Positions 5,088 through 32,000 of a stretch of 32,000 bases of DNA are shown here, piece after piece. The notes beneath the pieces were generated by a model that did no database searches, had not been told where the DNA came from, and saw only the letters and a program-made list of their open reading frames with translations. Positions within the stretch are counted from its first letter, which is position 1, and every line of letters begins with the position of its first letter. Both the position numbers and the translations under genes were made by a program. Source of the DNA: Oxalobacteraceae bacterium (lineage in GTDB: Bacteria; Pseudomonadota; Gammaproteobacteria; Burkholderiales; Burkholderiaceae_D); NCBI GenBank assembly GCA_947448025.1, contig CANFLV010000009.1, positions 110,738 through 142,737 on the forward strand, given 5' to 3'.

Positions 5088-5100
5088 CGCCGCCACAGCA

Positions 5101-13788: not shown

Positions 13789-13808
13789 TTCAGCTAGTGA
13801 GTAATTTT
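13788..13808. repeat. Left terminal inverted repeat of the island (P' arm)
   Basis: gttcagctagtgagtaatttt matches the reverse complement of 23817-23837 (gttcagctcgtgagtaatttt) at 20/21 positions. Confidence 0.8.
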
Positions 13809-14960: not shown

Positions 14961-15010
14961 CTGCTTTTAGTAAGTCAGACGAGCGTATTCCCACCCCAAT
15001 AAAATTCCTA

Positions 15011-15202: not shown

Positions 15203-15256
15203 CGTTAAATGTGATCACCGGATGTCTGCTTTGGCTCCAATTCAAGTGGAATAAAA

Positions 15257-15517: not shown

Positions 15518-15543
15518 TAAATTTATTGATTTCAGGATTTTAA

Positions 15544-16146
15544 ATGAAATGCGTCAATTGCAATAATTGGTATATGAAAAATACCGATAAATTTTGCTCT
15601 GAATGTGGAGCCAATCAGAAAATTGAATCAAATAAATTTACAAATTTGGAAATCCAATATAATAAATCTAATTTTCAATCAACTTCAACATCGACATTAA
15701 AAATTTTAAAAATATTAATATTAATTTTGGTGACTGTATTCACATTGTTATTCGCACTTGGCACTATGGTGGATTCAAGAATAAATTCATTTGAAAAGGG
15801 ATCTAATTATAGATGGCATAAAGGTTCATGTTCTATATTCCAAGAAACTAAAGTAAAGTGCCTGAATGAGATGGACTACAAGTACCTGTGCAAACACAGT
15901 GATGGTTTTACCTACTTTGCGCTAATGGAACTAGCCGTAAGAAATCAAGTGTATTCAATAGCGAGAGAAGCATCAAATTTACATAAAGAAATTTTTTGGA
16001 CTGGATCTAACGAGTGCCGCGCTTCAATTACAGCTACTGCAATTATTCGCGGAAATTCATCAGCAGATACAACAACTGGTGTAGTAGAAGAGTTTCATAT
16101 TTCAGAAGACGGTGAAATTTTAGTCGCTAGTTGGTCGGGCATTTAA
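15544..16146 (+). CDS. Zinc-ribbon / single-TM protein with ~125-aa C-terminal domain of unknown function
   Basis: N-terminal CxxC...CxxC (MKCVNCNNWYMKNTDKFCSECGANQ), a TM helix (ILKILILILVTVFTLLFALGTMV), and a Cys-containing C-terminal domain. AGGA SD is present. Confidence 0.6.
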   Translation: MKCVNCNNWYMKNTDKFCSECGANQKIESNKFTNLEIQYNKSNFQSTSTSTLKILKILILILVTVFTLLFALGTMVDSRINSFEKGSNYRWHKGSCSIFQETKVKCLNEMDYKYLCKHSDGFTYFALMELAVRNQVYSIAREASNLHKEIFWTGSNECRASITATAIIRGNSSADTTTGVVEEFHISEDGEILVASWSGI

Positions 16147-16316
16147 TAAATCAACAACTAACCTAATAACAGATAGCTTAATGCTATTAAATTATCCCCA
16201 ATAAATAAATTATAGATGCCAATATAAATTTCTTGCAAATTAATGAAAATTAGATATAAATTTCAAAGTGAGATAATCAATTTGAATTTTCTAAATTAAA
16301 TATATCCCTTTATGCA

Positions 16317-16628
16317 ATGTTGCAATTCAATCTAACTGTCAGTCAGGCAACTAACCACTCTGAAGAAGATGCGGCTAAATACTCAGTCGTTTTAGTGTTT
16401 TTATTTGGTAGAACCGAAATGCCAGATGCTATGCATTCCTATTTTCAAGCTGCGAAACTACTAGATAAAAATGCGACTGAAATAATTGGATTAGTTTCTA
16501 AAAAATCAATAATGAATACCGAAGTCGATGTTATTTCGTTTTGCAATAAGCAAAGATCGGAATACGATTATTTGAACCACATGACAAAAGGCAAACGGAA
16601 TGTATTGAAGTACTTAGACAGTTTTTAA
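16317..16628 (+). CDS. Hypothetical protein (103 aa)
   Basis: ORF only, in an AT-rich region. Confidence 0.3.
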   Translation: MLQFNLTVSQATNHSEEDAAKYSVVLVFLFGRTEMPDAMHSYFQAAKLLDKNATEIIGLVSKKSIMNTEVDVISFCNKQRSEYDYLNHMTKGKRNVLKYLDSF

Positions 16629-16932
16629 AAATAATTAATTTGCCAATGATTAACCATTTTCACATTTCGAAAGTAATCGACCAAAAATATTTTTCGAATA
16701 TTTTTAATTTGCAAAATGACAAAATTCTTACAATTAATTTTAAAAGCATTTTTCTGACACCTCAAGTTCTTTCCTAGTCTTTAAATGATATTTTTCGATC
16801 GATCAGTGAGCGCTTTTACTTATAGTTCAGCCGCGAAAAGCGTTTTAATCTCTACTTTAGTTTTTCAGTTGTAATCCGTCTTAGCAACAACACATTCCCA
16901 ACCTTATAGAGGCGAATGAACATTAGTTTTGC

Positions 16933-17045
16933 CTGATGGATTCCGTCGTCAATGATTTATTTTCTTGCCATAGCCTTGCCATCACGCAACACGATGCGAG
17001 TGCTAGTAATATATGTATTGAATTAAGTAGTTAGCCCTGTATTTT
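16933..17045 (+). repeat. Copy 1 of a 113-nt diverged direct repeat (relic of a duplicated coding segment)
   Basis: An ungapped hand alignment with 17420-17532 gives 77/113 identical positions. One shared reading frame is conserved at the protein level (..AITQ.DA.S.NICIE..). Confidence 0.6.
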
Positions 17046-17180
17046 TTAATCTACTTTAAAAATCAGAGAGCAGAATATTGAAAAGCCATCAGATAACTCT
17101 TAAATCAGCAGTAAGGTTACTGGTAGAATATTTTGTGATTCATTACTAAATACCTCCAAATATAAAATCGAGGATTAAAT

Positions 17181-17423
17181 ATGAAATGTGTTAGTTGCAA
17201 TAATTGGTATATGAAAAATACTGATAAATTCTGTACTGAGTGTGGAGCATCTCAGAATGTATCTCAGAATGCCGCTCAAAATTTTACACAAAATGCCGAA
17301 CCGGTGAATTCAATTTTCAACAGCGAGAAGCCGAAATTTTCAATGGTTAAAATAATATTATACTTATTAACCATATATTTCGCTATTTACATATTTAGGG
17401 CAGTATTCCTCAGTATGTTCTGA
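17181..17423 (+). CDS. Zinc-ribbon / single-TM protein, short paralogue of 15544-16146 (possibly truncated by frameshift)
   Basis: The N-terminal sequence MKCVSCNNWYMKNTDKFCTECGASQ is nearly identical to the paralogue. The first ~75 nt are highly similar, and the AGGA SD is conserved. A TM helix sits at the C terminus. Confidence 0.55.
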   Translation: MKCVSCNNWYMKNTDKFCTECGASQNVSQNAAQNFTQNAEPVNSIFNSEKPKFSMVKIILYLLTIYFAIYIFRAVFLSMF

Positions 17424-17532
17424 TTGACGCCATCGGCGACGAAAGGCATTTTCGCCATTGTCGTGCTATCACGCAAGACGATGCGCACAGTGGCAATATA
17501 TGTATTGAGATTGGTGGTGAGCTCTGTGATTT
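17420..17532 (+). repeat. Copy 2 of the 113-nt diverged direct repeat
   Basis: See 16933-17045. It lies in an open frame (17399-17656) that has no start codon and is -1 relative to the 17181-17423 gene. Confidence 0.6.
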
Positions 17533-17639
17533 TCATGCATGTATTTATCTACGCATGAAGTACGGAACCAGCAATAGCTGGCAGTTGTTCTCTCACAAGA
17601 TAATTGAGCCTCCCTTTACTAGACGCTCGGCATTGTCAA

Positions 17640-18086
17640 TCATTTGGCAAATCTAGCCTTCACCGAATCCGCGGCTTGCTCAATCTGCACATCAAGCGAG
17701 CCATCCAGAACAGCTTCCTGCAAGCGACTTAGAACCGCAAGCAGTTCATCGCCATTCGCGACTTCAACCGCATTCTTCCCTTTCGCCAAGTCAATCACCT
17801 TGTTGCCGTAGAAAATCTGTACAGCAAGCTTCTTAGTATCAACTTGAACAAACCACCATTGCTTGACGCGCTTGTTTATTTCTACCAGTGAAGTCATGCC
17901 AGTAACTTCATTGCGCACATTTCGCGTCCGTTTCACCGTGAACATTTCGTCTTTGCTCATCGCCTGAGCCATTGCAATCTGCACCTTCAATTTTTCATTC
18001 AATTTATTACGCCTGAAAACTACCGGATCAACTGTACTTTGGCGCTTCGCATTGACTAATTTCAGACTTGAAAGAATTGCACTCAT
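17640..18086 (-). CDS. Hypothetical protein (148 aa), divergent from the Rep-like gene
   Basis: A clean ORF with balanced composition (MSAILSSLKLVNAKRQSTVDPVVFRRNKLNEKLKVQIAMA...). I can name no motif. Confidence 0.5.
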   Translation of the reverse strand: MSAILSSLKLVNAKRQSTVDPVVFRRNKLNEKLKVQIAMAQAMSKDEMFTVKRTRNVRNEVTGMTSLVEINKRVKQWWFVQVDTKKLAVQIFYGNKVIDLAKGKNAVEVANGDELLAVLSRLQEAVLDGSLDVQIEQAADSVKARFAK

Positions 18087-18201
18087 TGAAATTTCCTTGT
18101 GTATTGATGTGTGTAATCATTTTCGTTCCGAATCTCCTTGATTCCTAGCCTGGATCATTTGGTTATTTCACGGTATTCATTGGTTTGGCATAAATAAACT
18201 A

Positions 18202-18753
18202 ATGATGATCCCAATAGATAAATTTCAAGAAAAGCACTTCGAAATACTAGATAAATTTCGCTCAAAGAATGAGGAATGGATTTTGCAACATCAACATCTG
18301 ATCACACATTCATTAACATTGACATTTGATTGCCGACATCTACTTCGTACTCTGAACAAATACCAAAGTTCGCAAACTCTTAATCATCCAGATGTAGTTG
18401 AATGGCTTCAAGCAAGCATGAGGTATTTTAAGAATAGGCTTAATAAATCACTGTATGGAAATCGACGCGGGAGAATTTTACTGATACCCGTTATTGAAGG
18501 ACTTGGAATAGATCAAAAGCCACACTACCACTGCCATCTTGGCGTTAGTAAAGATCGATTCGATGCAGTTGAAGCAAAGGTAAAAAGTATTTGGAAGGAA
18601 GTTCCGTTTGGTGGAACTCAAGTCGTAGTCAAACCATATAGAGATCATGGATGGGTTGGCTATTCTACAAAGAACACTTTGTTCGCAAACAGGGAGAGCA
18701 TCGATTGGATGAATATCCTCCTGCCCACATGTTCTTCATCTACTGCTGAGTAA
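18202..18753 (+). CDS. Small HUH-superfamily Rep/relaxase-like protein (putative rolling-circle initiator)
   Basis: Three ordered motifs: SLTLTF (motif I-like), KPHYHCHLGV (HUH motif) and GWVGYSTKN (YxxK catalytic Tyr motif). 183 aa. Confidence 0.5.
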   Translation: MMIPIDKFQEKHFEILDKFRSKNEEWILQHQHLITHSLTLTFDCRHLLRTLNKYQSSQTLNHPDVVEWLQASMRYFKNRLNKSLYGNRRGRILLIPVIEGLGIDQKPHYHCHLGVSKDRFDAVEAKVKSIWKEVPFGGTQVVVKPYRDHGWVGYSTKNTLFANRESIDWMNILLPTCSSSTAE

Positions 18754-19224
18754 TTGCTCCTTTGGATGAGGCGAAAGGGATCAGTTGATTCTTTAATAGC
18801 GGAGCCATGTCAATTTTCTGAAAGATCGCAATCAATGCTGTAAGGCTAGCAACTAGGTCTTTACTGAAGGTGATGTACAAGGCATGGCAAGCAAGAACTC
18901 AACGACAATTAAATATGCGCAGAAACAGGATCAATAATTGGTTGGCTCGCGCAAAATCATCGGGATAGTAATCAAGTGTACAGATATCGATTAGATCCAC
19001 GCATAAGCGATTTTCTTAAGTTAGTGACCTAGGCATTTGCAAACTGGCTTATCTTTTAAATTCAGTCAGCAGCGAAATCAAAGCAAATGTAAATTTCATT
19101 TGATTATTCGCTAACTCATTGAATTCATTAAACATCCAATATTTCACCTAAAGACTTGTCCGACCTAATCAATGGGTTCAGAATAAATACAGATCAATCA
19201 TTTGATATGTAAGGGAAATCTAAA

Positions 19225-19827
19225 ATGGCACAAGCAAAAGTACTGAATGAAAAAGAAGTCCGCAAAGTATTGCTCTATATCGCTGCACGCAAACATGCTG
19301 CCAGAAATCGGGCAATGTTCACGCTGTTGAATTTCACTGGTATGCGGGTCGGTGAGTTGGCAGCACTTCGTTTGTGCGATGTCTTGTCAAAGGACGGCGG
19401 CATTCGTGAAGAAATCTATTTGTCTGTAGATCAGACGAAGGGATCAAAGGGGCGCACAGTTGTTGTGTCGCAAAAAGCGCAGGAAGAAATCAGGAACTAC
19501 CTGCAAGCCCGCTTTAAACTGAAAGACTTACTGGCGGTGACAATGACAGACACAGGTCGTGCTCTGTTCACGACACAGAAAGAGCCGAATCGCGGCTTCA
19601 CTGCGTCAACATTAGCGCAGCACTTTCATTACATGTACAAAGGCGCAGGCATCACTGGCGCAAGCTCACACAGTGGTCGTCGTGGCTTCATCACGAACCT
19701 GGCGAACATGGGCGTATCAGTTCGCGTGTTGATGGAACTCGCTGGTCACAAGTCGCTGGCTGTGACGCAGAAATACATTGATGTAAATCCCAAGATGATG
19801 CGTTCAGCAGTGGAATTGCTCGGATAA
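19225..19827 (+). CDS. Tyrosine site-specific recombinase, catalytic domain only (200 aa)
   Basis: Catalytic signature in order: R in TGMRVGELAAL, K in TKGSKGRTV, HxxR in HSGRRGF, H in AGHKSL, and Y in TQKYIDV. There is no N-terminal SAM-like core-binding domain. AGGGA SD is present. Confidence 0.8.
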   Translation: MAQAKVLNEKEVRKVLLYIAARKHAARNRAMFTLLNFTGMRVGELAALRLCDVLSKDGGIREEIYLSVDQTKGSKGRTVVVSQKAQEEIRNYLQARFKLKDLLAVTMTDTGRALFTTQKEPNRGFTASTLAQHFHYMYKGAGITGASSHSGRRGFITNLANMGVSVRVLMELAGHKSLAVTQKYIDVNPKMMRSAVELLG

Positions 19828-19832
19828 AGAAA

Positions 19833-19852
19833 AAGCCAGCAGTAGCTGGCTT
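19833..19852. terminator. Bidirectional terminator between the convergent recombinase and H-NS-like genes
   Basis: aagccagc / gctggctt stem with loop agta. There is a good T-run on the minus strand (TTTTTCTTT) and a weak one on the plus strand. Confidence 0.6.
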
Positions 19853-19873
19853 GTTCACAAGGAAAATATTCAC

Positions 19874-20164
19874 TTAGATTTCAAACTGAGCGCGATCTTT
19901 ACCTTCCATCCATTTCGGCGTTCTACCGCGCCCTGACCATGTCAAACCAGTTGCTGGATCACGATACTTGGGCATGACCTTGCTTTCAGTGCTGACCTTA
20001 CGAGCGCGCTTAGCGCCGCCAAAAATGTCATCGGCAGTTAGATGATATTCAGCAATGATCGCTTTAATTTTACTGATGGCATCAGAAAGTTCATTCTGGC
20101 GCACTTGATCGATTTGTGCTTCGAGTGCTTCTTTTTGCTTGATGAGTTCTGCGAGCGTGGACAT
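19874..20164 (-). CDS. H-NS-family nucleoid-associated protein (Burkholderiales Bv3F/H-NS-like)
   Basis: 96 aa. It has an N-terminal coiled coil (LIKQKEALEAQIDQVRQNE) and a C-terminal DNA-binding motif, KYRDPATGLTWSGRGRTPKW. GGAG SD is present. Confidence 0.85.
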   Translation of the reverse strand: MSTLAELIKQKEALEAQIDQVRQNELSDAISKIKAIIAEYHLTADDIFGGAKRARKVSTESKVMPKYRDPATGLTWSGRGRTPKWMEGKDRAQFEI

Positions 20165-20203
20165 GTTTTGTTACTCCGTTAATAAATTTTTCTAGCCATT
20201 ATA

Positions 20204-20902
20204 TTACTCTGGAAAGCGTCCTTGGCGTACGGCGTCAATAATTTCGTTTGCTTTACGAAGATATCTACTTACAGCATTGATGGCAGTTGCGCTATCTAAA
20301 ACATTTATCTTATCGAGATCGCTCCGATTTAAGTCCATCGCAAGTGGTGATGGTAGTTTATCGACTTTCCACAAATTATTTTTATATCGCTTCTCTCGTT
20401 CCAAATAGAACTTACGGACTGACTTTAACAACTCACGCGATGTTGGCTTTTGACCATTCGTGATTTCAAGGAGTTTTTTGTTCTGATCGAAAGTATGCAA
20501 GTAAGCACGATATGTTGACGGTCTAATTTCAGCGCCGAGACGAACGCGTAACTGACTCAATTCAATTGGTTGATGACCGATTTCCATCAGAAATTTTCGA
20601 ACTTGTTCACCGATCTGTGTGCTTGTCTGTGATTTTGGCACGCGCAAAAGGTAAGTTACATCATCTGCCTTGCCTTCGTCAATTTGCTCAACCAAGGATG
20701 GAGTTAAGGAGATTACTTTTTTCCCGATTTCTTCCCACCATTTATCGAATTTATAAGTTTCGATATTACCCCACTCCCTATAAAGGTCGATTTTTACTTT
20801 CGACTTATCTTCTGCAATTGCTCTTCGTAAGAATTCGAACCAAAGTCTATAAGCTTCTTTGCTCTGAGCGCGTGGTGCGCGTTGTATTTTTTGGATTGTC
20901 AT
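20204..20902 (-). CDS. Hypothetical protein (232 aa) with Trp/Phe-rich N-terminal motif YRLWFEFLRR
   Basis: A clean ORF, divergent from 21164-21958 across a repeat-containing intergenic region. No SD. The motif is reminiscent of regulators on mobile elements, but I cannot assign a family. Confidence 0.45.
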   Translation of the reverse strand: MTIQKIQRAPRAQSKEAYRLWFEFLRRAIAEDKSKVKIDLYREWGNIETYKFDKWWEEIGKKVISLTPSLVEQIDEGKADDVTYLLRVPKSQTSTQIGEQVRKFLMEIGHQPIELSQLRVRLGAEIRPSTYRAYLHTFDQNKKLLEITNGQKPTSRELLKSVRKFYLEREKRYKNNLWKVDKLPSPLAMDLNRSDLDKINVLDSATAINAVSRYLRKANEIIDAVRQGRFPE

Positions 20903-20953
20903 TTATAAATTAATTAAATGTGAAAAAGTTAATTATTGATCTTCTTAAATCAA

Positions 20954-21013
20954 CGAGTCAATAACTCACTTATGAGATATTTGAGAATTACATTTTTCTA
21001 TATTATGGGTCTA
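20954..21013 (+). promoter_or_regulatory. Copy 1 of a ~60-bp direct repeat in the divergent promoter region
   Basis: cgagtcaataactcacttatgagatatttgagaatta... is repeated exactly 100 bp downstream. The first 37 nt match at 31/37. It contains a TTGAGA -35-like hexamer. Confidence 0.5.
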
Positions 21014-21053
21014 TTGATTGATTAACTCTTGCTTAAAGATTTTAATTTGTTAG

Positions 21054-21113
21054 CGAGTCAATAACTGACTTTTCAAATATTTGAAAAATAGTGTTTTTTG
21101 CATAATAGAGTCT
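21054..21113 (+). promoter_or_regulatory. Copy 2 of the ~60-bp direct repeat in the divergent promoter region
   Basis: cgagtcaataactgacttttcaaatatttgaaaaata... contains TTGAAA, a 16-nt spacer, then TAATAG, a promoter-like arrangement facing 21164-21958. Confidence 0.5.
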
Positions 21114-21163
21114 GAATCAATTAATTATAACTTTAAATACAACCACTTAAATAAGGCACTCAT

Positions 21164-21958
21164 ATGAACAACATCGCTCAAAGTAACATTATTACTCTTC
21201 AAGATAATGAAAAAACTCAACATGAATTTGTAACATTATGCTTAAACACTACAAATTTAAAAATGCAAAAAGATGACTACATATCTTCATTTAATTCGTT
21301 CGCAGCAAAAGCCGCTCAAACCACACTTGAAATGTGTCGTGTTGTCCAAGAAGCGAAAGTTGATTTAGACAAAAATAATTTTGAAAGCTTTTGTCAGGCA
21401 ATCGGTCACAGAAGTAACGATAGCACAATTCGAAAATATCTCGCTATCGGCGCAAGGTATTCTGAACTTCATGCAGTTGCTGATCGCTTACCTAATTCAT
21501 GGACTAGCATTTATTTAATTACAATGATTCCTCCTGAAAAATTATTGACTATGATAGACGATGTGAATTCATTTAAAAATATGACTGCACAAAAGATTAA
21601 GCAATTAATATCAACCGATAATGCGTCGTCAGAAAAGACCGTCAATAATTCATTGCTTGAAAATGCAGCAGTGTCAATTTATTTCGAAAAATCGCCGTCA
21701 ATTATTGAATGGAATACTTTAAAGATGCAATTGAAGGCAATTTCAGGATTCGACTCGTTAAAAATACGCATCGAATTTTCAAATAAATTCGAAAAAATTC
21801 ATGAGCATTCAAAAAATAATAATCGTGATGCTGCGAAGCGAACTCGTGAAATAAAAGCAGAGACGAAAAAAAATGTCGATGAAAAAAATTATGTCTACAA
21901 TCCAGCCTTTGACTATGGTGGTGCATATGATTTTGATCTAGGTGAATTCATTTCTTAA
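21164..21958 (+). CDS. Hypothetical protein (264 aa), possibly DUF3102-like DNA-binding protein
   Basis: The segment AAQTTLEMCRVVQEAKVDLDKNNFESFCQAIGHRSNDSTIRKYLAIGARY resembles the plasmid/phage DUF3102 pattern as I recall it. The C-terminal region is Lys-rich. AAGG SD is present. Confidence 0.45.
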   Translation: MNNIAQSNIITLQDNEKTQHEFVTLCLNTTNLKMQKDDYISSFNSFAAKAAQTTLEMCRVVQEAKVDLDKNNFESFCQAIGHRSNDSTIRKYLAIGARYSELHAVADRLPNSWTSIYLITMIPPEKLLTMIDDVNSFKNMTAQKIKQLISTDNASSEKTVNNSLLENAAVSIYFEKSPSIIEWNTLKMQLKAISGFDSLKIRIEFSNKFEKIHEHSKNNNRDAAKRTREIKAETKKNVDEKNYVYNPAFDYGGAYDFDLGEFIS

Positions 21959-21983
21959 AAAAGGCAGCTTCGGCTGCTTTTTT
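21957..21983 (+). terminator. Rho-independent terminator
   Basis: aaaaaaggcagc ttcg gctgctttttt hairpin immediately after the stop codon. Confidence 0.8.
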
Positions 21984-22133
21984 ATGTCCATTTTCTGTTC
22001 CATTTAGAACTTCTCTTTCCCGACGAATTTAAATAAAAATTCATTCAAATTTTACTTCTCATCGGATAGATATTTTTGAACAAAGGCGCTATGCTTTGTT
22101 ACAACTATTCATTATCAAATTTGGAATTATTCC

Positions 22134-23801
22134 GTGGTCAACACATTTCCCGTCAAGACTACCCTTCACATCTATACCCGCGTCTCCAGCGTGGCACAGG
22201 CTGAGCAAGGTACCTCACTTGAGTCTCAGCGCGACCTCGGAATCAAGAAGGCAAATGATCTTGGATTTGAATTCAAGGTCTGGAACGAAGGTGGTCATAG
22301 CTCGCATCATGAAGACATTGCCGACCGTCCAGAGCTGAATTCACTGTATGTGGCGATGCAGGCGGGTCAAGTAAAGCATGTGTGGGTCTATGACCCTTCT
22401 CGTATTTCACGAAATGACCAAGTTGCCTCTGCATTCAGGTATGCATGCAGCAAGCATGGTGTCACGCTCTATACAAAGGACGGAGTTTTTGACCTTTCCA
22501 ATCCAAACGACAAGTTTTTGAAGCAATTGCTGGACGCTGTTGCTGAATTTGATAATGTCACACGAGCAGAGAGGACGCGCCTCGGAAAACTAAACCGTGT
22601 TCGTTCCGGTAGTTGGCATGGCGGACAGGCACCTTTTGGCTATAAGTTAGAAGACCGAAAGTTAGTTGTCGTTGAAGAAGAAGCAAAGTGGGTTAAACGC
22701 ATCTTTCAAGAATTGGTCAAAGGCAGTGCGGCAACTCACATTAAACAAATCCTTGATTCCAATGGTGTCAGTCCGCGCCGGAAGAAAGGATTATGGACGC
22801 TCGGATCAATCAATGCGCTGCTGACGAATACGCACTACTCCGGACATTACCTCTATACCGACAAGAAGTCCGAGCAAACGATTGAAGTTCAATGTCCAAG
22901 CATCGTTGATCAGACGACATGGAATGCGGCTCAATACAAACGCTCACGCGAAGTGATCAGACAGTCACAGAAGAACGCCACGGAAAAGAATTTTTACCTT
23001 CTTCGGGACTTGATGTTTTGCGAACATTGCGGTCGCGCTATCAGTGGTCGGATGAACAAGTCTCGCGCAGAATCTAGTTACTACTGCCCGAACAAAGAGC
23101 GTGCATGGGCAAAGAATGGCGGATCAGAGACGCCGTGGAGGCGTGGCACAGGTTGCGGATTTGATCGCGCCATGAACATTCCGCAGACAGACAAGTTGGT
23201 CTGGGAATTGGTCACATCGCTTCATTCAAAGTCCAGCATCCTGAAAGAAGAAGTCAAACACCGATTGCTCAACCAGAATGGCGTGAAAATTCGTACTGAT
23301 GCTGAAATCAGGACAATTCAAGCCAAGCTGCGAAAGTTGCAGAAGAATTACAAGCTCATCAGCGAAACACTCGGCAATCTTGAGGCAAACAAGTTGATCG
23401 GCAAGATCAATGATGTCAGTTACGAGACCACTGTGCAGCGAATTCGGGAAGAACTAGGCAGCATTGAAACCGAACTTGCCAACGCAAGGCTTGAATTGGC
23501 GGGAACGGCGGAATCACGGAAGTGGGTGAACTGGTTGAAGGCGTTTGGCGAAGAAGTAGAGATGCTGGACGCGTTGACCGATGGAGAGAAAAAGGAGTAC
23601 ATCGGTGGCTTGGTAAAGCGGATTGATGTGCGTTACAGCAACGACAACCGTGAACACATACTCACTCTGACGATGCAGTTACCCATCGTCAATGACGGTA
23701 TCAAAAAGCTACGGTCTGGGCAAGAAGGTCGGGAATACGAAGTGACGCCCGGAACAGAAACCATTACCGTGGCATCCAAAAAAAAAGACCGGCGCGGCTA
23801 G
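22134..23801 (+). CDS. Large serine recombinase (integrase-type)
   Basis: 555 aa with a GTG start. It has an N-terminal resolvase catalytic domain (LHIYTRVSSVAQAEQGTSLESQ, VWVYDPSRISRN) and a recombinase domain (WHGGQAPFGYKL). A zinc-ribbon (CEHCGRAISG...YYCPN) and a long coiled coil follow. Confidence 0.92.
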   Translation: MVNTFPVKTTLHIYTRVSSVAQAEQGTSLESQRDLGIKKANDLGFEFKVWNEGGHSSHHEDIADRPELNSLYVAMQAGQVKHVWVYDPSRISRNDQVASAFRYACSKHGVTLYTKDGVFDLSNPNDKFLKQLLDAVAEFDNVTRAERTRLGKLNRVRSGSWHGGQAPFGYKLEDRKLVVVEEEAKWVKRIFQELVKGSAATHIKQILDSNGVSPRRKKGLWTLGSINALLTNTHYSGHYLYTDKKSEQTIEVQCPSIVDQTTWNAAQYKRSREVIRQSQKNATEKNFYLLRDLMFCEHCGRAISGRMNKSRAESSYYCPNKERAWAKNGGSETPWRRGTGCGFDRAMNIPQTDKLVWELVTSLHSKSSILKEEVKHRLLNQNGVKIRTDAEIRTIQAKLRKLQKNYKLISETLGNLEANKLIGKINDVSYETTVQRIREELGSIETELANARLELAGTAESRKWVNWLKAFGEEVEMLDALTDGEKKEYIGGLVKRIDVRYSNDNREHILTLTMQLPIVNDGIKKLRSGQEGREYEVTPGTETITVASKKKDRRG

Positions 23802-23816
23802 ACACTAACGCCCCAA

Positions 23817-23837
23817 AAAATTACTCACGAGCTGAAC
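23817..23837. repeat. Right terminal inverted repeat of the island (P arm)
   Basis: aaaattactcacgagctgaac; its reverse complement matches 13788-13808 at 20/21. Confidence 0.8.
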
Positions 23838-23838
23838 C

Positions 23839-23857
23839 AGTCCGTCACGGTGGAGTG
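23839..23857 (+). repeat. attR core: second copy of the glmS-terminal 19-mer
   Basis: AGTCCGTCACGGTGGAGTG, 17/19 identical to 13769-13787. Confidence 0.8.
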
Positions 23858-24145
23858 ATCCCGGAAGGACCTCTTCCCCAGAGGTCCGCTGAACCACCTC
23901 TCACATCTCTCATCATTAGCAGCGGACCAGTCACTCTCGACATTCGTCCGCTGAGTCCTTACCAGCAAGAGCTGATCGACACGATCCTGAAGCTAAGGGC
24001 TGCTCATTGGTCGGACCGTCAGATCGCAAACCACTTCAATCTTTTCGGCTGGATGACGCCGAGAGGACATCCCTTCATTCCCCAAAGTGTTTTCTCGATC
24101 CGGAAGAAGTATGCGAAGCGGTTAGAGAGACTTGGCGGGAAATGA
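23855..24145 (+). CDS. Paralogue of the island left-end small protein (relic of a second, truncated element)
   Basis: 96 aa with a GTG start inside the attR core. The segment LSPYQQELIDTILKLRAAHWSDRQIANHFNLFGWMTPRGHPFIPQSVFSIRKKYAKRLERL aligns with 13797-14102. It occupies the same position relative to the core repeat. Confidence 0.45.
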   Translation: MIPEGPLPQRSAEPPLTSLIISSGPVTLDIRPLSPYQQELIDTILKLRAAHWSDRQIANHFNLFGWMTPRGHPFIPQSVFSIRKKYAKRLERLGGK

Positions 24146-24544: not shown

Positions 24545-26923
24545 TTACCAGGCATAGGCCGCCTTCAGGTAGTAGAAGCGGCCGTTAAAACCATTTGGTG
24601 CAAAGCCGCTGTATGGATTGATACCGCCGTTATTCAGATTGCCTGCGGACGTCACCTGGTCAGGATAGCGATTAGTCGCATTGTCTGCGCCAGCCGTTAT
24701 GCGCACATTGCTGGCCAGGCGGTAAGTGGCCGACAGATCGAGCACCCATTGCGGCGAATAGACCTGATCCAAAGTCGCATTGTTTTGCGGAACCTTGAAA
24801 CTGCCGTAGCGGGTGGCGACGGCGCGGGCATTCCAGCTGCCGATGCCGTAGTCGGAGGCCAGGCTGAACTTGTCGCGTGGCGAGCCGACGGTGGCCCGAT
24901 TGATCGATTGACGATCAATCAGCAGCAGACCGTTTTTGGTCAGGACATCTGGATTGGTCGCGACATTTTCCACGGTGTTTTCATTGTGGTTATAAGCCAG
25001 CGTCAAGTCTAAACGACCGACGGCGTCCAGCTTGAGACGGTAAGTACTCACAATGTCGATACCTGTAGTGCTCGTATCGACCGCATTGGTGAAGTAGCGG
25101 GCGGCGCCCACCGGCGTGCCCTGAGCCGCCAGGGTGCCCTTCAGCGCATCAGGTAGGGTCATGTTCGCCGACAGGAAGACGCGGTCATTGAGATCGACGC
25201 GATACAGGTCGACCGTCGTGGTCCACGCAGCGTTCGGCTGCAGCTGCAGGCCGATACTGTAGTTATGCGCCTTCTCCGCTTTCAGTGGTTTGGCGCCAAG
25301 GGCCAGAGCGGCCGCGCTGTTGACCGCGAATGTGCCGGTTTCTATCGGCGTGTTGACACCATTGACCACGGAGAAGTTGGTCGTCGTGATGGTGTAGAAC
25401 TGCTGCGCCAGCGACGGTGCACGGAAGCCCGACGAAATCGTCGCGCGCAGTGCGACCGCCTCGCTGAAGCTGTAGCGCGCCGCCGCCTTGGCCGAAGTGG
25501 TATTGCCGAAGTCACTATAACGTTCGTGACGCAATGCGCCCGATACGGAAAACTGCTCGTTGACATTGGTCTCCACGTTGGCATATATCGAGCTGTTATG
25601 CCGGCTGTTACTGCCGGCATTGACCGGTCGGAAGCCCGAAAAACCTTGCGCGCCGCTGCCAGAGTAAGAAGCGGCGTCACCGGCATCGATTTCATAGCGT
25701 TCGCGCCGCGCTTCAGCACCGACTGCAAGCGTAAGTGGAGAACTCAAGCCATCAACCGCGAACTCGCGCGCGAAATCTGCGTTGAGCACAGTCTGCACAT
25801 TGTCCAGGTTACCGGCATGGAAATGGGTGGGACTGACCGCACCAAGGTCCTGGTTCACGGTATTGTCAAGATCAAGGCGGAAGTTATTGCTGCCCTGGTT
25901 CAGGCTGAGGTCCCAGCGCCAGGCGCCGAGCTCGCCGCGTAGGCCTATGACCAGCGATTCGTCACGTGTCGTGCTGTTCTCGAGCGGCAGGAAGCCCTGT
26001 GGGTAAATAGGCGTGCGTGGAGCGGTACCGTTGAGCGCGGTGCGCCAGGTCGCAGCAGCCGAGGTGTCGCGGGTGCTAAAGCCGGCGAAAGCGTAGGCGT
26101 CGACAGCCTCCGAGAGGCGATACTCGCTATTGACGAAGGCACTGCGTGGTGTCGAATCTGGGTCGCCGAAGCGCTGGTTGATCTGGCCATAGCGAGGTTC
26201 GGCCGGATTGCGCAGGTCGGGACCGGCACGATTGGTCGAATTGCGGTCGTCTGCTTCCAGCGACAGGCGAACCCAGCCTTGGCTGCCCAATCCAAAGCCG
26301 GTCGAGCCGAGCAGGGAAGTCTGGCGCCCGTCGTGCAACTGATACTGGCCAATCGAAGCGGAGACATCGCCACCGTCAGCGCCTTTTTTCAGGATGATGT
26401 TGATGACGCCGGCGATCGCGTCGGAACCATATTGTGCGGCAGCGCCGTCGCGCAATACTTCCACGTGGTCGATAGCCGACAGCGGGATCGCATTCAGATC
26501 CACCGGCGCGGAACCGCGTCCCTGGGTACCGTTCACGTTGACGACTGCGGAAGTATGACGACGCTTTCCATTGACCAGCACCAGTACCTGGTCAGGCGAG
26601 AGACCACGCAATTGCGCAGGGCGCACTGCATCGGACGCATCAGCCCCGGACGGGCGAGGAAAATTCAGCGAGGGCAGCAAACGACCCAGTACGGTGGCCA
26701 GCTCGGTAGAGCCGGTTGACTGCAGTTCGCGTGAGCTGAGGATATCGACCGGCGATTCGGAATCGACCGTGCGGCGATTCTTGATATAGGTACCGGTCAC
26801 CAGGAGCGATGCAATATCGTCCGGTGCTGCCTGCTGAGCGAATGCCGGAACGCCGGCGGAAAAAATCAGGCTCAATGCCAGGGCAATACGTGATGGGCGG
26901 AACGGGTTATGGCGGGCTTGCAT
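24545..26923 (-). CDS. TonB-dependent outer-membrane receptor
   Basis: 792 aa with a signal peptide ending AFAQQ. The plug domain carries LRGLSPDQVLVLVNGKRR and IDHVEVLRDGAAAQYGSDAIAGVINIILK. A long beta-barrel ends in an aromatic residue (AAYAW). GAGAGAAGG SD is present. Confidence 0.92.
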   Translation of the reverse strand: MQARHNPFRPSRIALALSLIFSAGVPAFAQQAAPDDIASLLVTGTYIKNRRTVDSESPVDILSSRELQSTGSTELATVLGRLLPSLNFPRPSGADASDAVRPAQLRGLSPDQVLVLVNGKRRHTSAVVNVNGTQGRGSAPVDLNAIPLSAIDHVEVLRDGAAAQYGSDAIAGVINIILKKGADGGDVSASIGQYQLHDGRQTSLLGSTGFGLGSQGWVRLSLEADDRNSTNRAGPDLRNPAEPRYGQINQRFGDPDSTPRSAFVNSEYRLSEAVDAYAFAGFSTRDTSAAATWRTALNGTAPRTPIYPQGFLPLENSTTRDESLVIGLRGELGAWRWDLSLNQGSNNFRLDLDNTVNQDLGAVSPTHFHAGNLDNVQTVLNADFAREFAVDGLSSPLTLAVGAEARRERYEIDAGDAASYSGSGAQGFSGFRPVNAGSNSRHNSSIYANVETNVNEQFSVSGALRHERYSDFGNTTSAKAAARYSFSEAVALRATISSGFRAPSLAQQFYTITTTNFSVVNGVNTPIETGTFAVNSAAALALGAKPLKAEKAHNYSIGLQLQPNAAWTTTVDLYRVDLNDRVFLSANMTLPDALKGTLAAQGTPVGAARYFTNAVDTSTTGIDIVSTYRLKLDAVGRLDLTLAYNHNENTVENVATNPDVLTKNGLLLIDRQSINRATVGSPRDKFSLASDYGIGSWNARAVATRYGSFKVPQNNATLDQVYSPQWVLDLSATYRLASNVRITAGADNATNRYPDQVTSAGNLNNGGINPYSGFAPNGFNGRFYYLKAAYAW

Positions 26924-27190
26924 GGGTGGCCTTCTCTCTTTATCAACAAAATGTGAGGAGAGACTAGCAGCCCGGGCAACTATTGCCGACGAATCATTTC
27001 AAGCTAAGAAATTCGTAAATTGACTATTGATACTGGCGAACTCGTCTGCACAATTTGTTCGACAACATCGCCACATCAGGCGAACACGATCTGCATATTC
27101 AAATGCAAAATCATTCGTTTCCTTTGCCCGGCCCGAGCCGCAAACTGATTGCTCCAATCATCAATTTGAAGTTGGCAAAGGACCAAAATC

Positions 27191-27727
27191 ATGACCGCCT
27201 CCGCTTTGATCGCCGACAAGTCGGCATCTTCCCTACGCAACAATTCTGCCCGGCTGGATCCGCTTTCCAGCAAGGCCACCGGGCACGATTCGCCGGTGCT
27301 GCAGCGCGCCGAGGAGAAAGCCAGGGCCGGCAATCTGCCATTCGCCGGCTCGCTCAATCCGCGCGACGCATGGGGACTGCATCTGGCTGGCGACGCACTG
27401 ATCGTCGATGTTCGGACGGCGGAAGAACGCAAATTTGTCGGCTATATTCCCGGCACCGCGCATGTGGCCTGGATGACCGGCATCTCGCTCACGCGCAATC
27501 CGCGCTTTGTCAAGGAACTGGAGTCGCGTGTCGGCCGTGATGCCAATATCCTGCTGCTATGCCGCAGCGGAAAACGTTCTGCCTTGGCGGCCGAGGCTGC
27601 CGCCAAGGCTGGCTTCCAGCATGTATTCAATATCCTTGAAGGCTTCGAAGGCGATCTCGACAACCAGCAGCGCCGCGGCGAATTCAACGGCTGGCGTCAT
27701 ACCGGCCTGCCGTGGGTGCAAGACTGA
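27191..27727 (+). CDS. Rhodanese-domain sulfurtransferase with ~55-aa low-complexity N-terminal extension
   Basis: 178 aa with active-site loop CRSGKRS. The rhodanese fold markers LIVDVRTAEE and GW...GLPW are present. AGGA SD lies 8 nt upstream. Confidence 0.85.
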   Translation: MTASALIADKSASSLRNNSARLDPLSSKATGHDSPVLQRAEEKARAGNLPFAGSLNPRDAWGLHLAGDALIVDVRTAEERKFVGYIPGTAHVAWMTGISLTRNPRFVKELESRVGRDANILLLCRSGKRSALAAEAAAKAGFQHVFNILEGFEGDLDNQQRRGEFNGWRHTGLPWVQD

Positions 27728-28692
27728 TGAGCAAGGCACTGCGCGACTCGACCGAAGCCTATCAGAAAGTCGGCGGCTGGGGCGTCGGCGATATCGTCGC
27801 CGGCTTGCGCGCCGAGCGTGAACGCTGGCGCAATTCGCATCAACGCTCGCGCGAATTCGCCGTGCGGGAATTCCCGGCCCGCACAGCCCTACGTGAAATT
27901 GTCGAGTCGCTGTGCGGCGTGTTGTTCCCGATGCGGTTGGGGCCGACCGACCTGCATCAGGAAGGGGAGGATCACTTTGTCGGCTATACGCTCGACACCG
28001 CCCTTAATGCTCTGTATGAGCAGGTCCTGCTCGAACTGACCTATCAGCGTCGCCTGCTGGGAGTGCGGGCCGATACTGTTGCGGTCGACGCAGCCGTGAT
28101 CGTGCGCGCGTTTGGCGGCGCATTGCCCGGCCTGCGGCGCCTCCTGGATTCGGACATTGAGGCCGCCTTCCAGGGCGACCCGGCGGCGCGCAGCGTGGAT
28201 GAAGTGCTGCTCTGCTATCCCGGCGTGCTGGCAATTATTCACTATCGCCTGGCACATACGCTGTTTGGCCTGGGCGTGCAGCTGATCGCCCGCATCCTTG
28301 CTGAAATTGCCCATTCCATTACCGGCATCGACATCCATCCGGGCGCCCGCATCGGCGCCAGCTTCTTTATCGACCACGGTACCGGTGTGGTAATCGGCGA
28401 GACCACGGTCATCGGTAGCAGGGTGCGGCTCTATCAGGCGGTGACGCTGGGTGCCAAACGCTTTGCCATGGCGCAGTCCGGCAAACTCGAAAAAGGCGGT
28501 GCCCACCATCCCATCCTCGAAGACGATGTCGTGGTCTATGCGGGCGCTACCATCCTCGGTCGCATCACTATCGGACGTGGTTCCAGCATTGGCGGCAATG
28601 TCTGGCTAACGCGCAGCGTGCCGCCCGAGAGTCAGGTGACCCAGGCCAGCCTGCTGCAGGCGCCGGTCGACGCAGTTGTGAGCCTTTCATGA
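27727..28692 (+). CDS. cysE: Serine O-acetyltransferase (long EpsC-like form)
   Basis: The ATG overlaps the rhodanese stop (TGATG). The left-handed beta-helix hexapeptide region is GIDIHPGARIGASFFIDHGTGVVIGETTVIGSRVRLYQAVTLG. About 321 aa. Confidence 0.85.
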   Translation: MSKALRDSTEAYQKVGGWGVGDIVAGLRAERERWRNSHQRSREFAVREFPARTALREIVESLCGVLFPMRLGPTDLHQEGEDHFVGYTLDTALNALYEQVLLELTYQRRLLGVRADTVAVDAAVIVRAFGGALPGLRRLLDSDIEAAFQGDPAARSVDEVLLCYPGVLAIIHYRLAHTLFGLGVQLIARILAEIAHSITGIDIHPGARIGASFFIDHGTGVVIGETTVIGSRVRLYQAVTLGAKRFAMAQSGKLEKGGAHHPILEDDVVVYAGATILGRITIGRGSSIGGNVWLTRSVPPESQVTQASLLQAPVDAVVSLS

Positions 28693-28924
28693 ACGCCGGA
28701 ATTGCCATCGTTGCCAGTTTCGGGCAGGCAGTGCGCCATTTTCGTGAACAGAAACTTGGTCGCAGGAACGATTGGCCGCAACCGCAGACCTGAACCGTTC
28801 GTATCTCGGTCAGGTGGAACGCGGACAGGCCCTGCCATCGCTGGCGACTGCCAAAAAACTGGCGGCAGCGCTAGATGTCTCGCTCGCCGAGCTGGTCGAC
28901 TTATGGGAATGCAGCCAACCCTAG
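28689..28924 (+). pseudogene. XRE-family HTH regulator interrupted by a frameshift
   Basis: Frame A (ATG 28689, ATGA overlap with the cysE stop) gives MNAGIAIVASFGQAVRHFREQKL and then stops at 28793. The adjacent frame continues WSQERLAATADLNRSYLGQVERGQALPSLATAKKLAAALDVSLAELV to TAG 28924. The total span is 236 nt, one short of a multiple of 3. Confidence 0.6.
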
Positions 28925-28996
28925 CGCAATCATACCGGATTGTTTTACGCATTTTCGTCATTCACTTTCACCCACCCAAAAACAAGGAGCCTTTCC

Positions 28997-29923
28997 ATGA
29001 CACAAACCAGAGAGCCGACCGCACTGGGCGACATCGCCGCCCGGCAGTTAGCCAATGCGACCAAGAGTACTGCACAACTTTCCACCATCTCGCCGCGCTG
29101 GCTGGTGCATTTCCTGCAATGGCTGCCGGTTGAAGCCGGTATCTATCGGCTCAACCAGGTAAAAAATCCGCGCGACGTGCTGGTGGCCTGCACCGGGCGC
29201 GACGAGTCGGAGCTGCCGCAAACCTTTGTTGACTACGAGGAGCAGCCGCGCGAATATTTCCTCAATTCTGTTGCGACGGTCCTGGATGTGCATACCCGTG
29301 TCTCCGACCTGTACAGCAGCCCGCATGACCAGATCAAGGAACAGCTGCGCCTGACAATTGAAACCATCAAGGAACGCCAGGAAGCCGAACTGATCAACAA
29401 TCCCGACTATGGCCTGCTGGCCAATGTTGATGACGAACAGCGCATTTCCACTCTGACCGGAGCGCCGACTCCTGATGATCTCGATGACCTCTTGACCAAA
29501 GTCTGGAAAGAGCCGGCCTTCTTCCTCGCCCATCCGCTGGCGATCGCCGCCTTCGGTCGCGAGTGCACGCGTCGTGGCGTACCGCCACCAACGGTTTCGC
29601 TGTTCGGTGCACAGTTCCTGACCTGGCGCGGCGTGCCACTGATCCCATCGGACAAAATTTCGGTCGATGGCGGCAAGGCCAAGATCCTCCTGCTGCGCGT
29701 AGGTGAAAAACGCCAGGGCGTGATCGGCCTGTTCCAGCCTGGCCTGCCGGGCGAGCAAAGTCCGGGTCTGTCGGTGCGCTTCATGGGCATCAATCGTAAT
29801 GCCATCGCGTCTTACCTGATCTCGCTGTATTGCTCGATCGCGGTACTGGTGCCGGATGCATTGGCAGTTCTTGAAGATGTTGAAATTGGCAAATACCATG
29901 ACTACCCTGACACCTACAAGTAA
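28997..29923 (+). CDS. Family 2A encapsulin nanocompartment shell protein (SrpI-like, no cNMP-binding insertion)
   Basis: ATG 28997 lies 7 nt after AAGGAG. The 308-aa protein carries ALGDIAARQLANATKS, SPRWLVHFLQWLPVEAGIYRLNQVK, WKEPAFFLAHPLAIAAFGRECTRRGVPPPTVSLFG, WRGVPLIPSDK and LSVRFMGINR. These match my recollection of Family 2A shell proteins. The neighbourhood is the canonical rhodanese/cysE/cysteine desulfurase set. Confidence 0.85.
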   Translation: MTQTREPTALGDIAARQLANATKSTAQLSTISPRWLVHFLQWLPVEAGIYRLNQVKNPRDVLVACTGRDESELPQTFVDYEEQPREYFLNSVATVLDVHTRVSDLYSSPHDQIKEQLRLTIETIKERQEAELINNPDYGLLANVDDEQRISTLTGAPTPDDLDDLLTKVWKEPAFFLAHPLAIAAFGRECTRRGVPPPTVSLFGAQFLTWRGVPLIPSDKISVDGGKAKILLLRVGEKRQGVIGLFQPGLPGEQSPGLSVRFMGINRNAIASYLISLYCSIAVLVPDALAVLEDVEIGKYHDYPDTYK

Positions 29924-31700
29924 TCACCCGGGCCTCGGCGGCAGTCCACTGCCGGTTCTGCCGGATGAGGCGATCCTGGGACGTTTGGCTTCAGCATTCT
30001 TCCGGGCCCTGCCCAATGAAGACGCCGGCCAGTCTGGCGTCAGTGGGCTCAGTCATAGAGTGAACCAGCCGGACACCGGTGCGCCTGTACTGCTATCTTC
30101 GGCTGAGACGCAGCCGGCCTCAGCGGCCACGGTCGCACCGCCAGGTCGTGCTGCCGGCCTCGGCCTGCCGTTGCACTTTGCTCCTGCCTTGCCACAGGTC
30201 GGCCAGCCTGAGGTCGTGTCGGCCCAGGGCCAGGCTGCCTACTACTTTATCGAGCATGCGCTGGCACCCCAGGCACAAGCTGTAGGCGGGGAAAATCGCA
30301 TTGGCGCGCGTAGTTTCGGTCTGCCTGGTGAAGGCGCGCTGCATGGCGCACTCGATGCGCTTGCCGCGAGCCGTACGCCACTGCCGCAACGCGATACGCC
30401 GGCGCAAGGCGGGCAGTTCTACTTTCTTGACACGGCGCTCGCGCCGGCCCTGGCCCCGGCGGCCCATCCAGCTTTCGATGTGCATGCTGTCCGGCGAGAC
30501 TTTCCCATCTTGCAAGAGAAGATCAAAGGAAAAAACCTAATCTGGTTCGACAATGCGGCGACGACCCAGAAGCCGCAGTCGGTGATCGACAGGCTGGCCT
30601 ATTTCTACGCGCATGAAAACTCCAACATCCATCGTGCCGCGCATGAACTGGCAGCGCGCGCCACCGACGCCTATGAAGGGGCACGCAACAAGGTTCAGCG
30701 CTTTCTTGGCGCTGGCTCGAGTAGTGAGATTGTCTTCGTGCGCGGTGCGACCGAGGCGATCAATCTGGTGGCGGCCAGCTGGGGCGAACAAAATATTGGC
30801 GAAGGCGACGAGATTATCGTCTCTCATCTCGAGCATCACGCCAATATCGTGCCGTGGCAGCAGCTCGCTACACGTCGCGGTGCGCGCCTGCGTGTGATTC
30901 CAGTGGACGACAGCGGTCAAATCCGGCTGGATGAATTCCAGCGCCTGCTCAATCCGCGCACCCGTTTGGTCGCCATAACGCATGTCTCGAATGCGCTTGG
31001 CACCATCACACCGGTCAAGCAAGTGATTGATGCGGCTCATGCGGCGGGCGCGCTGGTGTTAGTCGACGGCGCTCAGTCGGCCTCGCATTTGCGCGTCAAT
31101 GTGCAGGAACTGGACGCCGACTTCTTTGTATTTTCCGGGCACAAGATATTTGGCCCGACCGGTATCGGCGTTTTGTATGGCAAAAAGGCCTTGCTCGACC
31201 AGATGCCACCCTGGCAGGGTGGGGGTAACATGATCGCCGATGTCACCTTCGAACGCACGGTCTACCAGCCGGCGCCGAATCGCTTTGAAGCAGGCACCGG
31301 CAATATCGCCGATGCGGTCGGCCTGGGGGCAGCTCTCGATTATGTCGAACGCATTGGCCTGGAAAATATCGCAGGCTACGAGCATGCCCTTTTGGCCTAT
31401 GCGACGCGCGGACTGGCGTCGATTCCGGGCGTGCGACTGGTCGGTACGGCGGCGGAGAAGACCAGTGTTGCGTCCTTCGTACTCGACGGTTATACGACCG
31501 AGCAGGTGGGACAGGCGCTCAACGACGAGGGCATCGCCGTGCGCTCAGGCCATCACTGCGCCCAGCCTATCCTGCGGCGCTTTGGTCTGGAGGCGACGGT
31601 GCGGCCCTCATTTGCTTTCTATAACACCTGTGAAGAGATCGACCAGCTGCTCAATGTGGTCAGGCGCCTGGCACGCGGAAAGGGTAAATTGGTGCTCTGA
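29898..31700 (+). CDS. SufS/NifS-type cysteine desulfurase with ~190-aa disordered N-terminal encapsulin cargo-loading domain
   Basis: The C-terminal ~400 aa is a class V aminotransferase, with PLP Lys in FSGHKIFGPTGIGVLYG and catalytic Cys in RSGHHCAQPILRRFG. The N-terminal region is Pro/Ala/Gly-rich and has no fold signature. The start is uncertain (ATG 29898, 29877 or 29856), and all three overlap the shell gene's 3' end. Confidence 0.88.
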   Translation: MTTLTPTSNHPGLGGSPLPVLPDEAILGRLASAFFRALPNEDAGQSGVSGLSHRVNQPDTGAPVLLSSAETQPASAATVAPPGRAAGLGLPLHFAPALPQVGQPEVVSAQGQAAYYFIEHALAPQAQAVGGENRIGARSFGLPGEGALHGALDALAASRTPLPQRDTPAQGGQFYFLDTALAPALAPAAHPAFDVHAVRRDFPILQEKIKGKNLIWFDNAATTQKPQSVIDRLAYFYAHENSNIHRAAHELAARATDAYEGARNKVQRFLGAGSSSEIVFVRGATEAINLVAASWGEQNIGEGDEIIVSHLEHHANIVPWQQLATRRGARLRVIPVDDSGQIRLDEFQRLLNPRTRLVAITHVSNALGTITPVKQVIDAAHAAGALVLVDGAQSASHLRVNVQELDADFFVFSGHKIFGPTGIGVLYGKKALLDQMPPWQGGGNMIADVTFERTVYQPAPNRFEAGTGNIADAVGLGAALDYVERIGLENIAGYEHALLAYATRGLASIPGVRLVGTAAEKTSVASFVLDGYTTEQVGQALNDEGIAVRSGHHCAQPILRRFGLEATVRPSFAFYNTCEEIDQLLNVVRRLARGKGKLVL

Positions 31701-31725: not shown

Positions 31726-31750
31726 GGGCTCGTGCGGGCCCTTTTTTTTT
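31726..31750 (+). terminator. Rho-independent terminator of the encapsulin operon
   Basis: gggctcgtgcgggccc hairpin followed by nine T. Confidence 0.7.
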
Positions 31751-31779: not shown

Positions 31780-32000
31780 TGTGGTGGTCAACTAATTTCG
31801 GACACAGCGATAGGTCTTTTTTCTGCCATGTTCCGTTCAAAGACGGCAGGCGGCAGATTGCCCAATACTGAATTGAGCCGTTCACTGTTGTAGAAGCCAA
31901 CGATGTACGACACGATGTCGGCCTTGGCTTCGGCTTGATTGGCATAGGTGCGCTGCCATACGCGCTCCATCTTGAGGTTAAGGAAGAAACGTTCAGCCAC
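31780..32000 (-). mobile_element. IS3-family insertion sequence, end fragment (transposase OrfB C-terminus, continues beyond the window)
   Basis: The minus-strand frame ..AERFFLNLKMERVWQRTYANQAEAKADIVSYIVGFYNSERLNSVLGNLPPAVFE.. matches the conserved end of the IS3 rve-domain transposase. The stop at 31788 lies inside a candidate terminal repeat, TGTGGTGGTCAAC (starting at 31780); that IS boundary is inferred. Confidence 0.75.

Follow-up and report, generated by a model that had tools for sequence, protein, structure and literature searches.

The window, a stretch of 32,000 nucleotides (nt) from an Oxalobacteraceae bacterium (contig CANFLV010000009.1, assembly GCA_947448025.1), contains near its right end a co-directional set of genes for a rhodanese, a serine acetyltransferase, the shell protein of an encapsulin, and a cysteine desulfurase. 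This set was analysed as a candidate Family 2A encapsulin operon, that is, a sulfur-metabolism nanocompartment. Its features are as follows, with lengths of proteins in amino acids (aa):

27191..27727, + strand: rhodanese, a single-domain sulfurtransferase of 178 aa (PF00581, PDB 8W14, active-site loop)
27727..28692, + strand: serine O-acetyltransferase of 321 aa, CysE/EpsC type (Hexapep PF00132, NF041874)
28689..28924, + strand: pseudogene of an XRE-family (HTH_3) regulator (HTH_3 match of the repaired frame, DNA alignment)
28925..28996, + strand: shortened intergenic region of 72 nt between XRE and shell gene (alignment with relatives)
28997..29923, + strand: Family 2A encapsulin shell protein of 308 aa, HK97 fold (PF19307, NF041162, 8T6R)
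29898..30467, + strand: cargo-loading N-terminal domain of the desulfurase, ~190 aa (motifs, composition)
30468..31700, + strand: catalytic domain of the SufS-type cysteine desulfurase, class V and dependent on pyridoxal phosphate (PLP) (PF00266, NF041166, PDB 8KG1)
31726..31750, + strand: intrinsic terminator at the operon end (RNA folding)
27027..27054, + strand: candidate sigma-70-like promoter TTGATA-16-CACAAT, tentative (consensus scan only)

The original prediction took the product of 28997-29923 for a Family 2A encapsulin (SrpI-like, HK97 fold) and proposed a search with profile hidden Markov models. This search was strongly positive. The shell protein matched the Pfam family PF19307, 'Type 2A encapsulin shell protein SrpI-like', with an E-value (E) of 3.3e-108. 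The NCBIfam equivalog for family 2A shells, NF041162, was covered from position 1 to 295 of 295 and scored 532.8 bits at a cut-off of 380. The Acinetobacter baumannii shell solved by cryo-electron microscopy (PDB 8T6R) is 83% identical over 300 aa in a gapless alignment (E 3e-170), and SrpI of Synechococcus elongatus (PDB 6X8M) aligned with residues 2-303 (E 7e-148). Including 9KSL and 8WOL, two shell entries named 'Major membrane protein I' (MMP-I), the solved shells matched with E from 3e-170 to 3e-142. Family 2B shells with a terpene-cyclase cargo (PDB 9BHU, 9BJE) have a homologous HK97-fold core (E 1e-85 to 1e-91), but carry an additional cyclic nucleotide (cNMP)-binding domain of ~200 aa. 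A Pfam search detected no such domain in the window shell, which aligned only with the last 238 positions (212-449 of 450) of the Family 2B model and is accompanied by a desulfurase. The shell gene had been expected to be commonly annotated as hypothetical. This no longer holds, as curated Pfam and NCBIfam models now name shell and cargo; the window proteins themselves are without names in the public collection. Given its 83% identity to a shell with demonstrated assembly and loading, and its homology to the S. elongatus protein, the 308-aa protein likely self-assembles into a ~24-nm T=1 icosahedral shell and encapsulates a cargo.

The gene adjoining the shell gene encodes the candidate cargo. 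The desulfurase scored 891.1 bits with NF041166, the model for family 2A cargo cysteine desulfurases (cut-off 800), and 569.8 bits with TIGR01979 for SufS (cut-off 475). It matched PF00266 with E 7e-151 and the structure PDB 8KG1 with E 7e-193. The class V aminotransferase fold, the PLP-lysine motif SGHK (residues 413-416) and the catalytic-cysteine motif GHHC (551-554) characterise it as SufS-type (group II). A long disordered N-terminal extension, already described in the original prediction, was apparent in the composition: residues 1-190 are of low complexity, with 54% A+G+P+S+Q versus 34% in the catalytic domain. This extension contains the motifs LGRLASAFFRALP (27-39), AAYYFIEHA (113-121) and GQFYFLDTA (172-180). 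They correspond to the loading motifs 'LARLANEFFS' and 'AASPYYFLDG' defined for the S. elongatus cargo CyD (Nichols et al. 2021, PMC8049743). The window cargo has two YYF-type motifs, unlike CyD. By homology to the S. elongatus and A. baumannii systems, the desulfurase is probably packaged via its disordered N-terminal domain with the LGRLASAFF and YYF/FYF motifs.

The two upstream genes are co-directional and located directly before shell and cargo, the arrangement of the four-gene operon type. The rhodanese matched PF00581 (E 7e-12). Behind an N-terminal extension, residues 34-178 aligned with the crystal structure of the encapsulin-associated rhodanese of A. baumannii (PDB 8W14, E 2e-57), and the active-site loop is C124-RSGKRS. 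The acetyltransferase is of the hexapeptide-repeat type (PF00132) and passes the model for EpsC-type serine acetyltransferases, NF041874, with 159.6 bits (cut-off 150). All four intact genes match curated models or solved structures with E from 1e-12 to 1e-268. The observed features are far beyond chance.

The coupled boundaries between the co-directional frames, listed in the original prediction, were read directly in the sequence, and every coordinate matched. TGATG at 27725-27729 combines the rhodanese stop with the acetyltransferase start. ATGA at 28689-28692 combines the acetyltransferase stop with the start of the XRE gene. The in-frame desulfurase ATG at 29898 creates an overlap of 26 nt with the shell gene; further in-frame ATGs are present at 29877 and 29856, and the frame ends at 31700. 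Of the 77 loci compared (window included), 64 have the ATG of the 26-nt overlap in frame. This ATG sits within His-Asp codons of the shell gene (CAT GAC), and loci with CAC for histidine lose it. This dependence on the CAT codon argues for the ATG at 29898 as the true, translationally coupled start. Gene callers in public data likewise give a desulfurase of 600 aa. The shell gene has the ribosome-binding site AAGGAG at 28984-28989. The terminator at 31726-31750, overlooked by a simple consensus scan, was recovered by RNA folding, in support of the original prediction. It consists of a GC-rich hairpin (31726-31741) and a U-run to 31750, with a folding energy of -27 kcal/mol (z = -4.87) that was reached by none of 200 shuffles. 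The genes are likely translationally coupled and share this one terminator.

Upstream of the rhodanese gene lies a divergent intergenic region of 267 nt (26924-27190). The consensus scan found two promoter-like sites in it versus 1.9 expected from shuffles, the tentative site at 27027..27054 included. In a short-word blastn search, the intergenic regions of the window were compared with the 80 related loci. The nucleotides before the rhodanese gene proved not to be conserved, so that no shared operator or CysB-type site can be proposed there. Only short imperfect repeats of no demonstrable significance were detected in a repeat search of two intergenic regions. An Rfam scan of the whole window yielded a single tRNA gene at 10398-10470; it detected neither a riboswitch nor a leader in the vicinity of the operon.

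Desulfurase encapsulins are well characterised. Benisch et al. (2024, PMC10836720) counted 1462 operons for Family 2A desulfurase encapsulins across 11 phyla and distinguished four operon organisations, one of them with rhodanese, acetyltransferase, shell and desulfurase genes. The gene set of the window matches this published type, as the original prediction had proposed. The same study described a ~24-nm T=1 shell with desulfurase as the sole cargo and storage of elemental sulfur. In proteobacteria, 813 Family 2A desulfurase systems were listed, among whose accessory genes those for acetyltransferase and rhodanese were the most enriched (Andreas & Giessen 2021, PMC8346489). The operon J517_0525-0528 of A. 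baumannii 118362 has the same four genes in the same order as the window. It was expressed, imaged and solved (PMC10836720, PMC11284452), and the biochemistry of its rhodanese was studied (PMC11284452). Its rhodanese aligned over 145 residues and shares the CRSG(K/N)RS loop, and its cargo also has a long disordered N-terminal domain. The A. baumannii system was shown by experiment, whereas the window system is known from genes alone. A. baumannii has consecutive locus tags and thus no XRE gene between acetyltransferase and shell genes, where the window has a frameshifted one. The S. elongatus PCC 7942 system (SrpI and CyD; PDB 6X8M, 6X8T) is cyanobacterial and plasmid-borne, and the main text of PMC8049743 never mentions a rhodanese.

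Relatives were obtained by a scan of one genome per GTDB species. At least 548 relatives were confirmed, and the best 80 of these were used as related loci. Their shell proteins are 83-91% identical to that of the window. Top matches came from Azospira, Dechloromonas, Accumulibacter and other Azonexaceae. Judged by these best hits, the window likely has a Rhodocyclales-like betaproteobacterial origin, a host class other than that of A. baumannii. According to tblastn searches with the window proteins, the order rhodanese, acetyltransferase, (XRE), shell and desulfurase is present in almost all 80 loci. The seven closest loci (L001-L007; Dechloromonas, Azospira, Accumulibacter and Azonexaceae) share 88-91% identity in the shell, 67-74% in the acetyltransferase and 63-72% in the rhodanese, and have the same 26-nt overlap of shell and cargo genes. 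In six of them (L001, L003-L007), the rhodanese and acetyltransferase genes are separated by a PALP (CysK-like) gene, which is absent from L002 and the window. In L003, the gene at 4721-5698 is of the PALP family (CysK/CysM-like; PF00291, E 1e-72). Together with XRE, this arrangement would represent a six-gene variant. An additional ~1 kb between rhodanese and acetyltransferase genes was observed in L001, L003-L007, L012, L032, L035, L066, L071 and L075. The TonB-dependent receptor next to the operon was considered as a conserved partner and rejected: it had one distant match only, downstream of the operon in L008 with 37% identity.

The original prediction had noticed a decayed XRE gene, and the decay was located precisely. 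A deletion of 1 nt after position 28751 leads to a premature TGA at 28791-28793 and leaves a stub of 34 codons. The remaining helix-turn-helix runs on in another frame to the TAG at 28922-28924. In a DNA alignment with three intact orthologues, the deletion is a single-base gap directly before the invariant TGGTCGCAGGA (W-S-Q-E). Restoring one base yields a full-length HTH_3 match (profile 2-55 of 55, E 2.5e-15). The window thus has no uninterrupted helix-turn-helix of an XRE or Cro/CI-type regulator. An assembly error was ruled out. Thirteen fetched loci share the identical stretch of 238 nt from 28689 to 28926. They belong to 10 accessions of samples or assemblies: two ENA assemblies, among them the source contig of the window, two NCBI metagenome-assembled genomes (MAGs) and six Logan runs. 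The frameshift is therefore a real, fixed mutation. In the contigs of these accessions, the operon has 0-4 mismatches to the window over up to 4510 nt. Among the 80 related loci, 43 have a HTH_3 protein of ~75-95 aa between acetyltransferase and shell, with helix 1 in frame. The seven closest loci all have an intact XRE, in contrast to the window. In a limited literature search that covered PMC10836720, PMC8049743 and PMC8346489, neither an XRE or helix-turn-helix gene as part of these operons nor a pairing of XRE with the box described below was mentioned.

A k-mer comparison of the relatives revealed a conserved box upstream of the shell gene: TTGnTGGC(T/G)ATAGC(A/C)(T/G)GTTGA, followed by a non-conserved spacer of 17 nt and GAnAnT. 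With at most two mismatches, the box precedes the shell start by ~83-142 nt (mostly 93-99) in 40 of the 43 XRE-bearing relatives and occurs in none of the 37 related loci without XRE. Elsewhere in the 2.1 Mb scanned, six weak matches were found. The closest loci L002-L007 have the box ~95 nt upstream of the shell start, and L001 has a degenerate version only. The motif was derived from the same loci that were used for these counts, and an independent scan of metagenome contigs for an exact 18-mer was added. It gave 120 exact matches, of which 106 had sufficient downstream sequence. Of these, 67 precede a Family 2A shell gene of the same strand by at most 260 nt. In 65 of the 67, an XRE gene was detected upstream of the match (58 within 120 nt, seven farther away); the other two gave no sign that it is missing. 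A rough estimate, made without a tool, places the remaining matches in the order of chance for the size of the collection.

The layout of the box can be read as a sigma-70-type promoter with TTGAAG as -35 element and GACAAT/GATACT as weak -10 element. The palindromic core of the box, GCTATAGC, has its centre near -42 of this predicted promoter. A centre near -42 is a typical site for a dimeric helix-turn-helix protein. A sigma-54 reading of the box was rejected by inspection rather than by a tool score, since the spacing from TGGC to TTG is two bases too long for the sigma-54 consensus. Many of the closest loci share GCTTAT-N11-ATAAGC just downstream of the -10-like element. In Undibacterium sp. 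SXout20W (L065, ~6880-6975), a long tandem run of GATTTT/TTTTGA hexamers occupies the spacer between acetyltransferase and shell genes and may represent an element of variable length.

The window lacks the box. No match with up to two mismatches exists anywhere in it, and a single match with three mismatches is at chance level. The spacer from XRE to shell is 72 nt long, compared with ~100-115 nt for the closest relatives. It retains in recognisable form only what lies downstream of the -10 element in the relatives; the box and the -35 element are gone. The regulator gene and its presumed operator have therefore decayed together in this lineage.

Every feature that defines Family 2A desulfurase encapsulins at the level of sequence is present in the window, and nothing was found that contradicts the assignment. 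The locus most probably encodes a desulfurase encapsulin system of Family 2A in its published four-gene form (probability about 0.93). A few observations weigh against it. The organism is known only from metagenome assemblies. The acetyltransferase reached 167.8 bits with the CysE model TIGR01172, below the strict equivalog cut-off of 210.65. The consensus scan identified no operon promoter with confidence, and the PALP gene of the closest relatives is absent, which suggests a slightly different pathway context. A free SufS for Fe-S assembly beside an unrelated HK97 capsid remnant of a prophage would explain the match of the catalytic domain to the generic TIGR01979 and the mobile-element genes nearby. 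But neither sufBCDE nor structural genes of a phage lie next to the pair. The shell, 83% identical to a solved encapsulin, scores above the cut-off of the family 2A equivalog, and the desulfurase above that of the cargo-specific model; the desulfurase also has a loading domain, and the two genes are syntenic in hundreds of genomes. Model scores, matches to solved structures and synteny effectively refute this explanation. The frameshift in XRE and the deletion of the box also fit a decaying, non-functional remnant of an operon that is being lost. The nested IS3 and IS110 elements directly downstream, the low-GC island with recombinases upstream and the missing PALP gene would agree with such a loss. 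It is nevertheless improbable: the four genes, structural and enzymatic, have kept their full length and all catalytic and loading motifs and score above curated cut-offs, the coupled junctions are retained, and the genes are nearly invariant in the 10 accessions. The encapsulin operon is an ordinary example of an already characterised system. Its sole unusual trait is the decayed regulator gene together with the presumed DNA target.

The box suggests an internal promoter for shell and cargo under control of XRE, with binding and direction of control both predicted from sequence. That XRE and box are a genuine regulator-operator pair, and thereby a fifth component of many proteobacterial Family 2A operons, has an even chance of being correct. 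The ~75-aa XRE protein would bind the palindrome-containing box near -42 of the internal sigma-70-type promoter and switch the transcription of shell and cargo separately from the rhodanese and acetyltransferase genes. Activation is slightly more likely than repression, as the geometry of the box resembles that of lambda CI at PRM. The box may instead be a promoter that was co-inherited with XRE without being its binding site, the co-occurrence reflecting shared descent. This is the less probable of the two, yet a serious alternative: the box holds a good -35 element, TTGAAG, with a -10-like GAnAnT after the non-conserved spacer, the same loci had served to define it in retrospect, and the contact to XRE is deduced from sequence. 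Shared descent fits less well with the presence and absence of XRE, which are interleaved within the genera Undibacterium and Zoogloea, and the box tracks XRE (40/43 versus 0/37). The independent metagenome scan points in the same direction, and the palindromic core suits a dimeric helix-turn-helix protein. In a Zoogloea MAG without XRE and acetyltransferase (L024:6861-7001), the promoter-like elements TTGA and GACACT upstream of the shell gene are kept, but the box has diverged in its left, palindromic half. This single case fits operator decay after XRE loss.

For the window, this has consequences for the expression of the nanocompartment. XRE is inactivated, and the box and -35 element are missing; transcription of shell and cargo therefore most likely depends entirely on read-through from the promoter before the rhodanese gene. 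The consensus scan detected no terminator-like site between 28692 and 28997, which makes upstream read-through a likely source of the shell and cargo transcripts. In the proposed pathway, the encapsulated desulfurase would convert L-cysteine to alanine, and the freed sulfur would accumulate as stored elemental sulfur. The co-expressed rhodanese, a thiosulfate/persulfide sulfurtransferase, probably aids the remobilisation of sulfur, and the acetyltransferase may feed cysteine synthesis.

The operon itself adds one uncultured betaproteobacterial example to a system that is characterised, named automatically by NCBI models and catalogued in more than 1000 genomes. A modest gain concerns the switching-on of desulfurase encapsulins. 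Published clues are the induction by sulfur starvation shown for S. elongatus and A. baumannii, with a rise in expression of ~10-fold reported under sulfur limitation, and a report of no connection to the regulator FisR (PMC10836720). The pair of XRE and box, present in about half of the relatives, is a small, testable regulatory candidate, and a lineage without both offers a natural comparison. If the pair is genuine, the window represents a natural knock-out of the XRE switch, with regulator and operator including the -35 element lost.

The neighbours of the operon agree with the TonB receptor and insertion sequence (IS) named in the original prediction:

24545-26923, - strand: TonB-dependent receptor, divergent, 5' neighbour of the operon
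31788-32000, - strand: C-terminus of an IS3-family transposase, 3' neighbour of the operon

The window is the end of a metagenome contig of 115.6 kb (ENA ERZ27263722). In this parent contig (L081:12792-15252), an element of the IS110 family has inserted into the IS3-family transposase gene and splits it, an arrangement of nested insertion sequences. A low-GC island lies at ~13789-24000, with a GC content of 0.31-0.45 versus 0.55-0.62 in the flanks. It begins right after glmS (11971-13788, + strand), a position that is a classical insertion hot spot (attTn7-like). The island contains a tyrosine-integrase fragment of 200 aa (19225-19827), an H-NS-like gene, a large serine recombinase of 555 aa (22134-23801) and several open reading frames without Pfam match. 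The tRNA gene (- strand, Rfam 73.6 bits) overlaps the 5' end of the open reading frame 10381-11256 (+ strand). Cytochrome c domains were detected at residues 189-263 of this frame, and the true start of the cytochrome c gene is probably downstream of the listed one.

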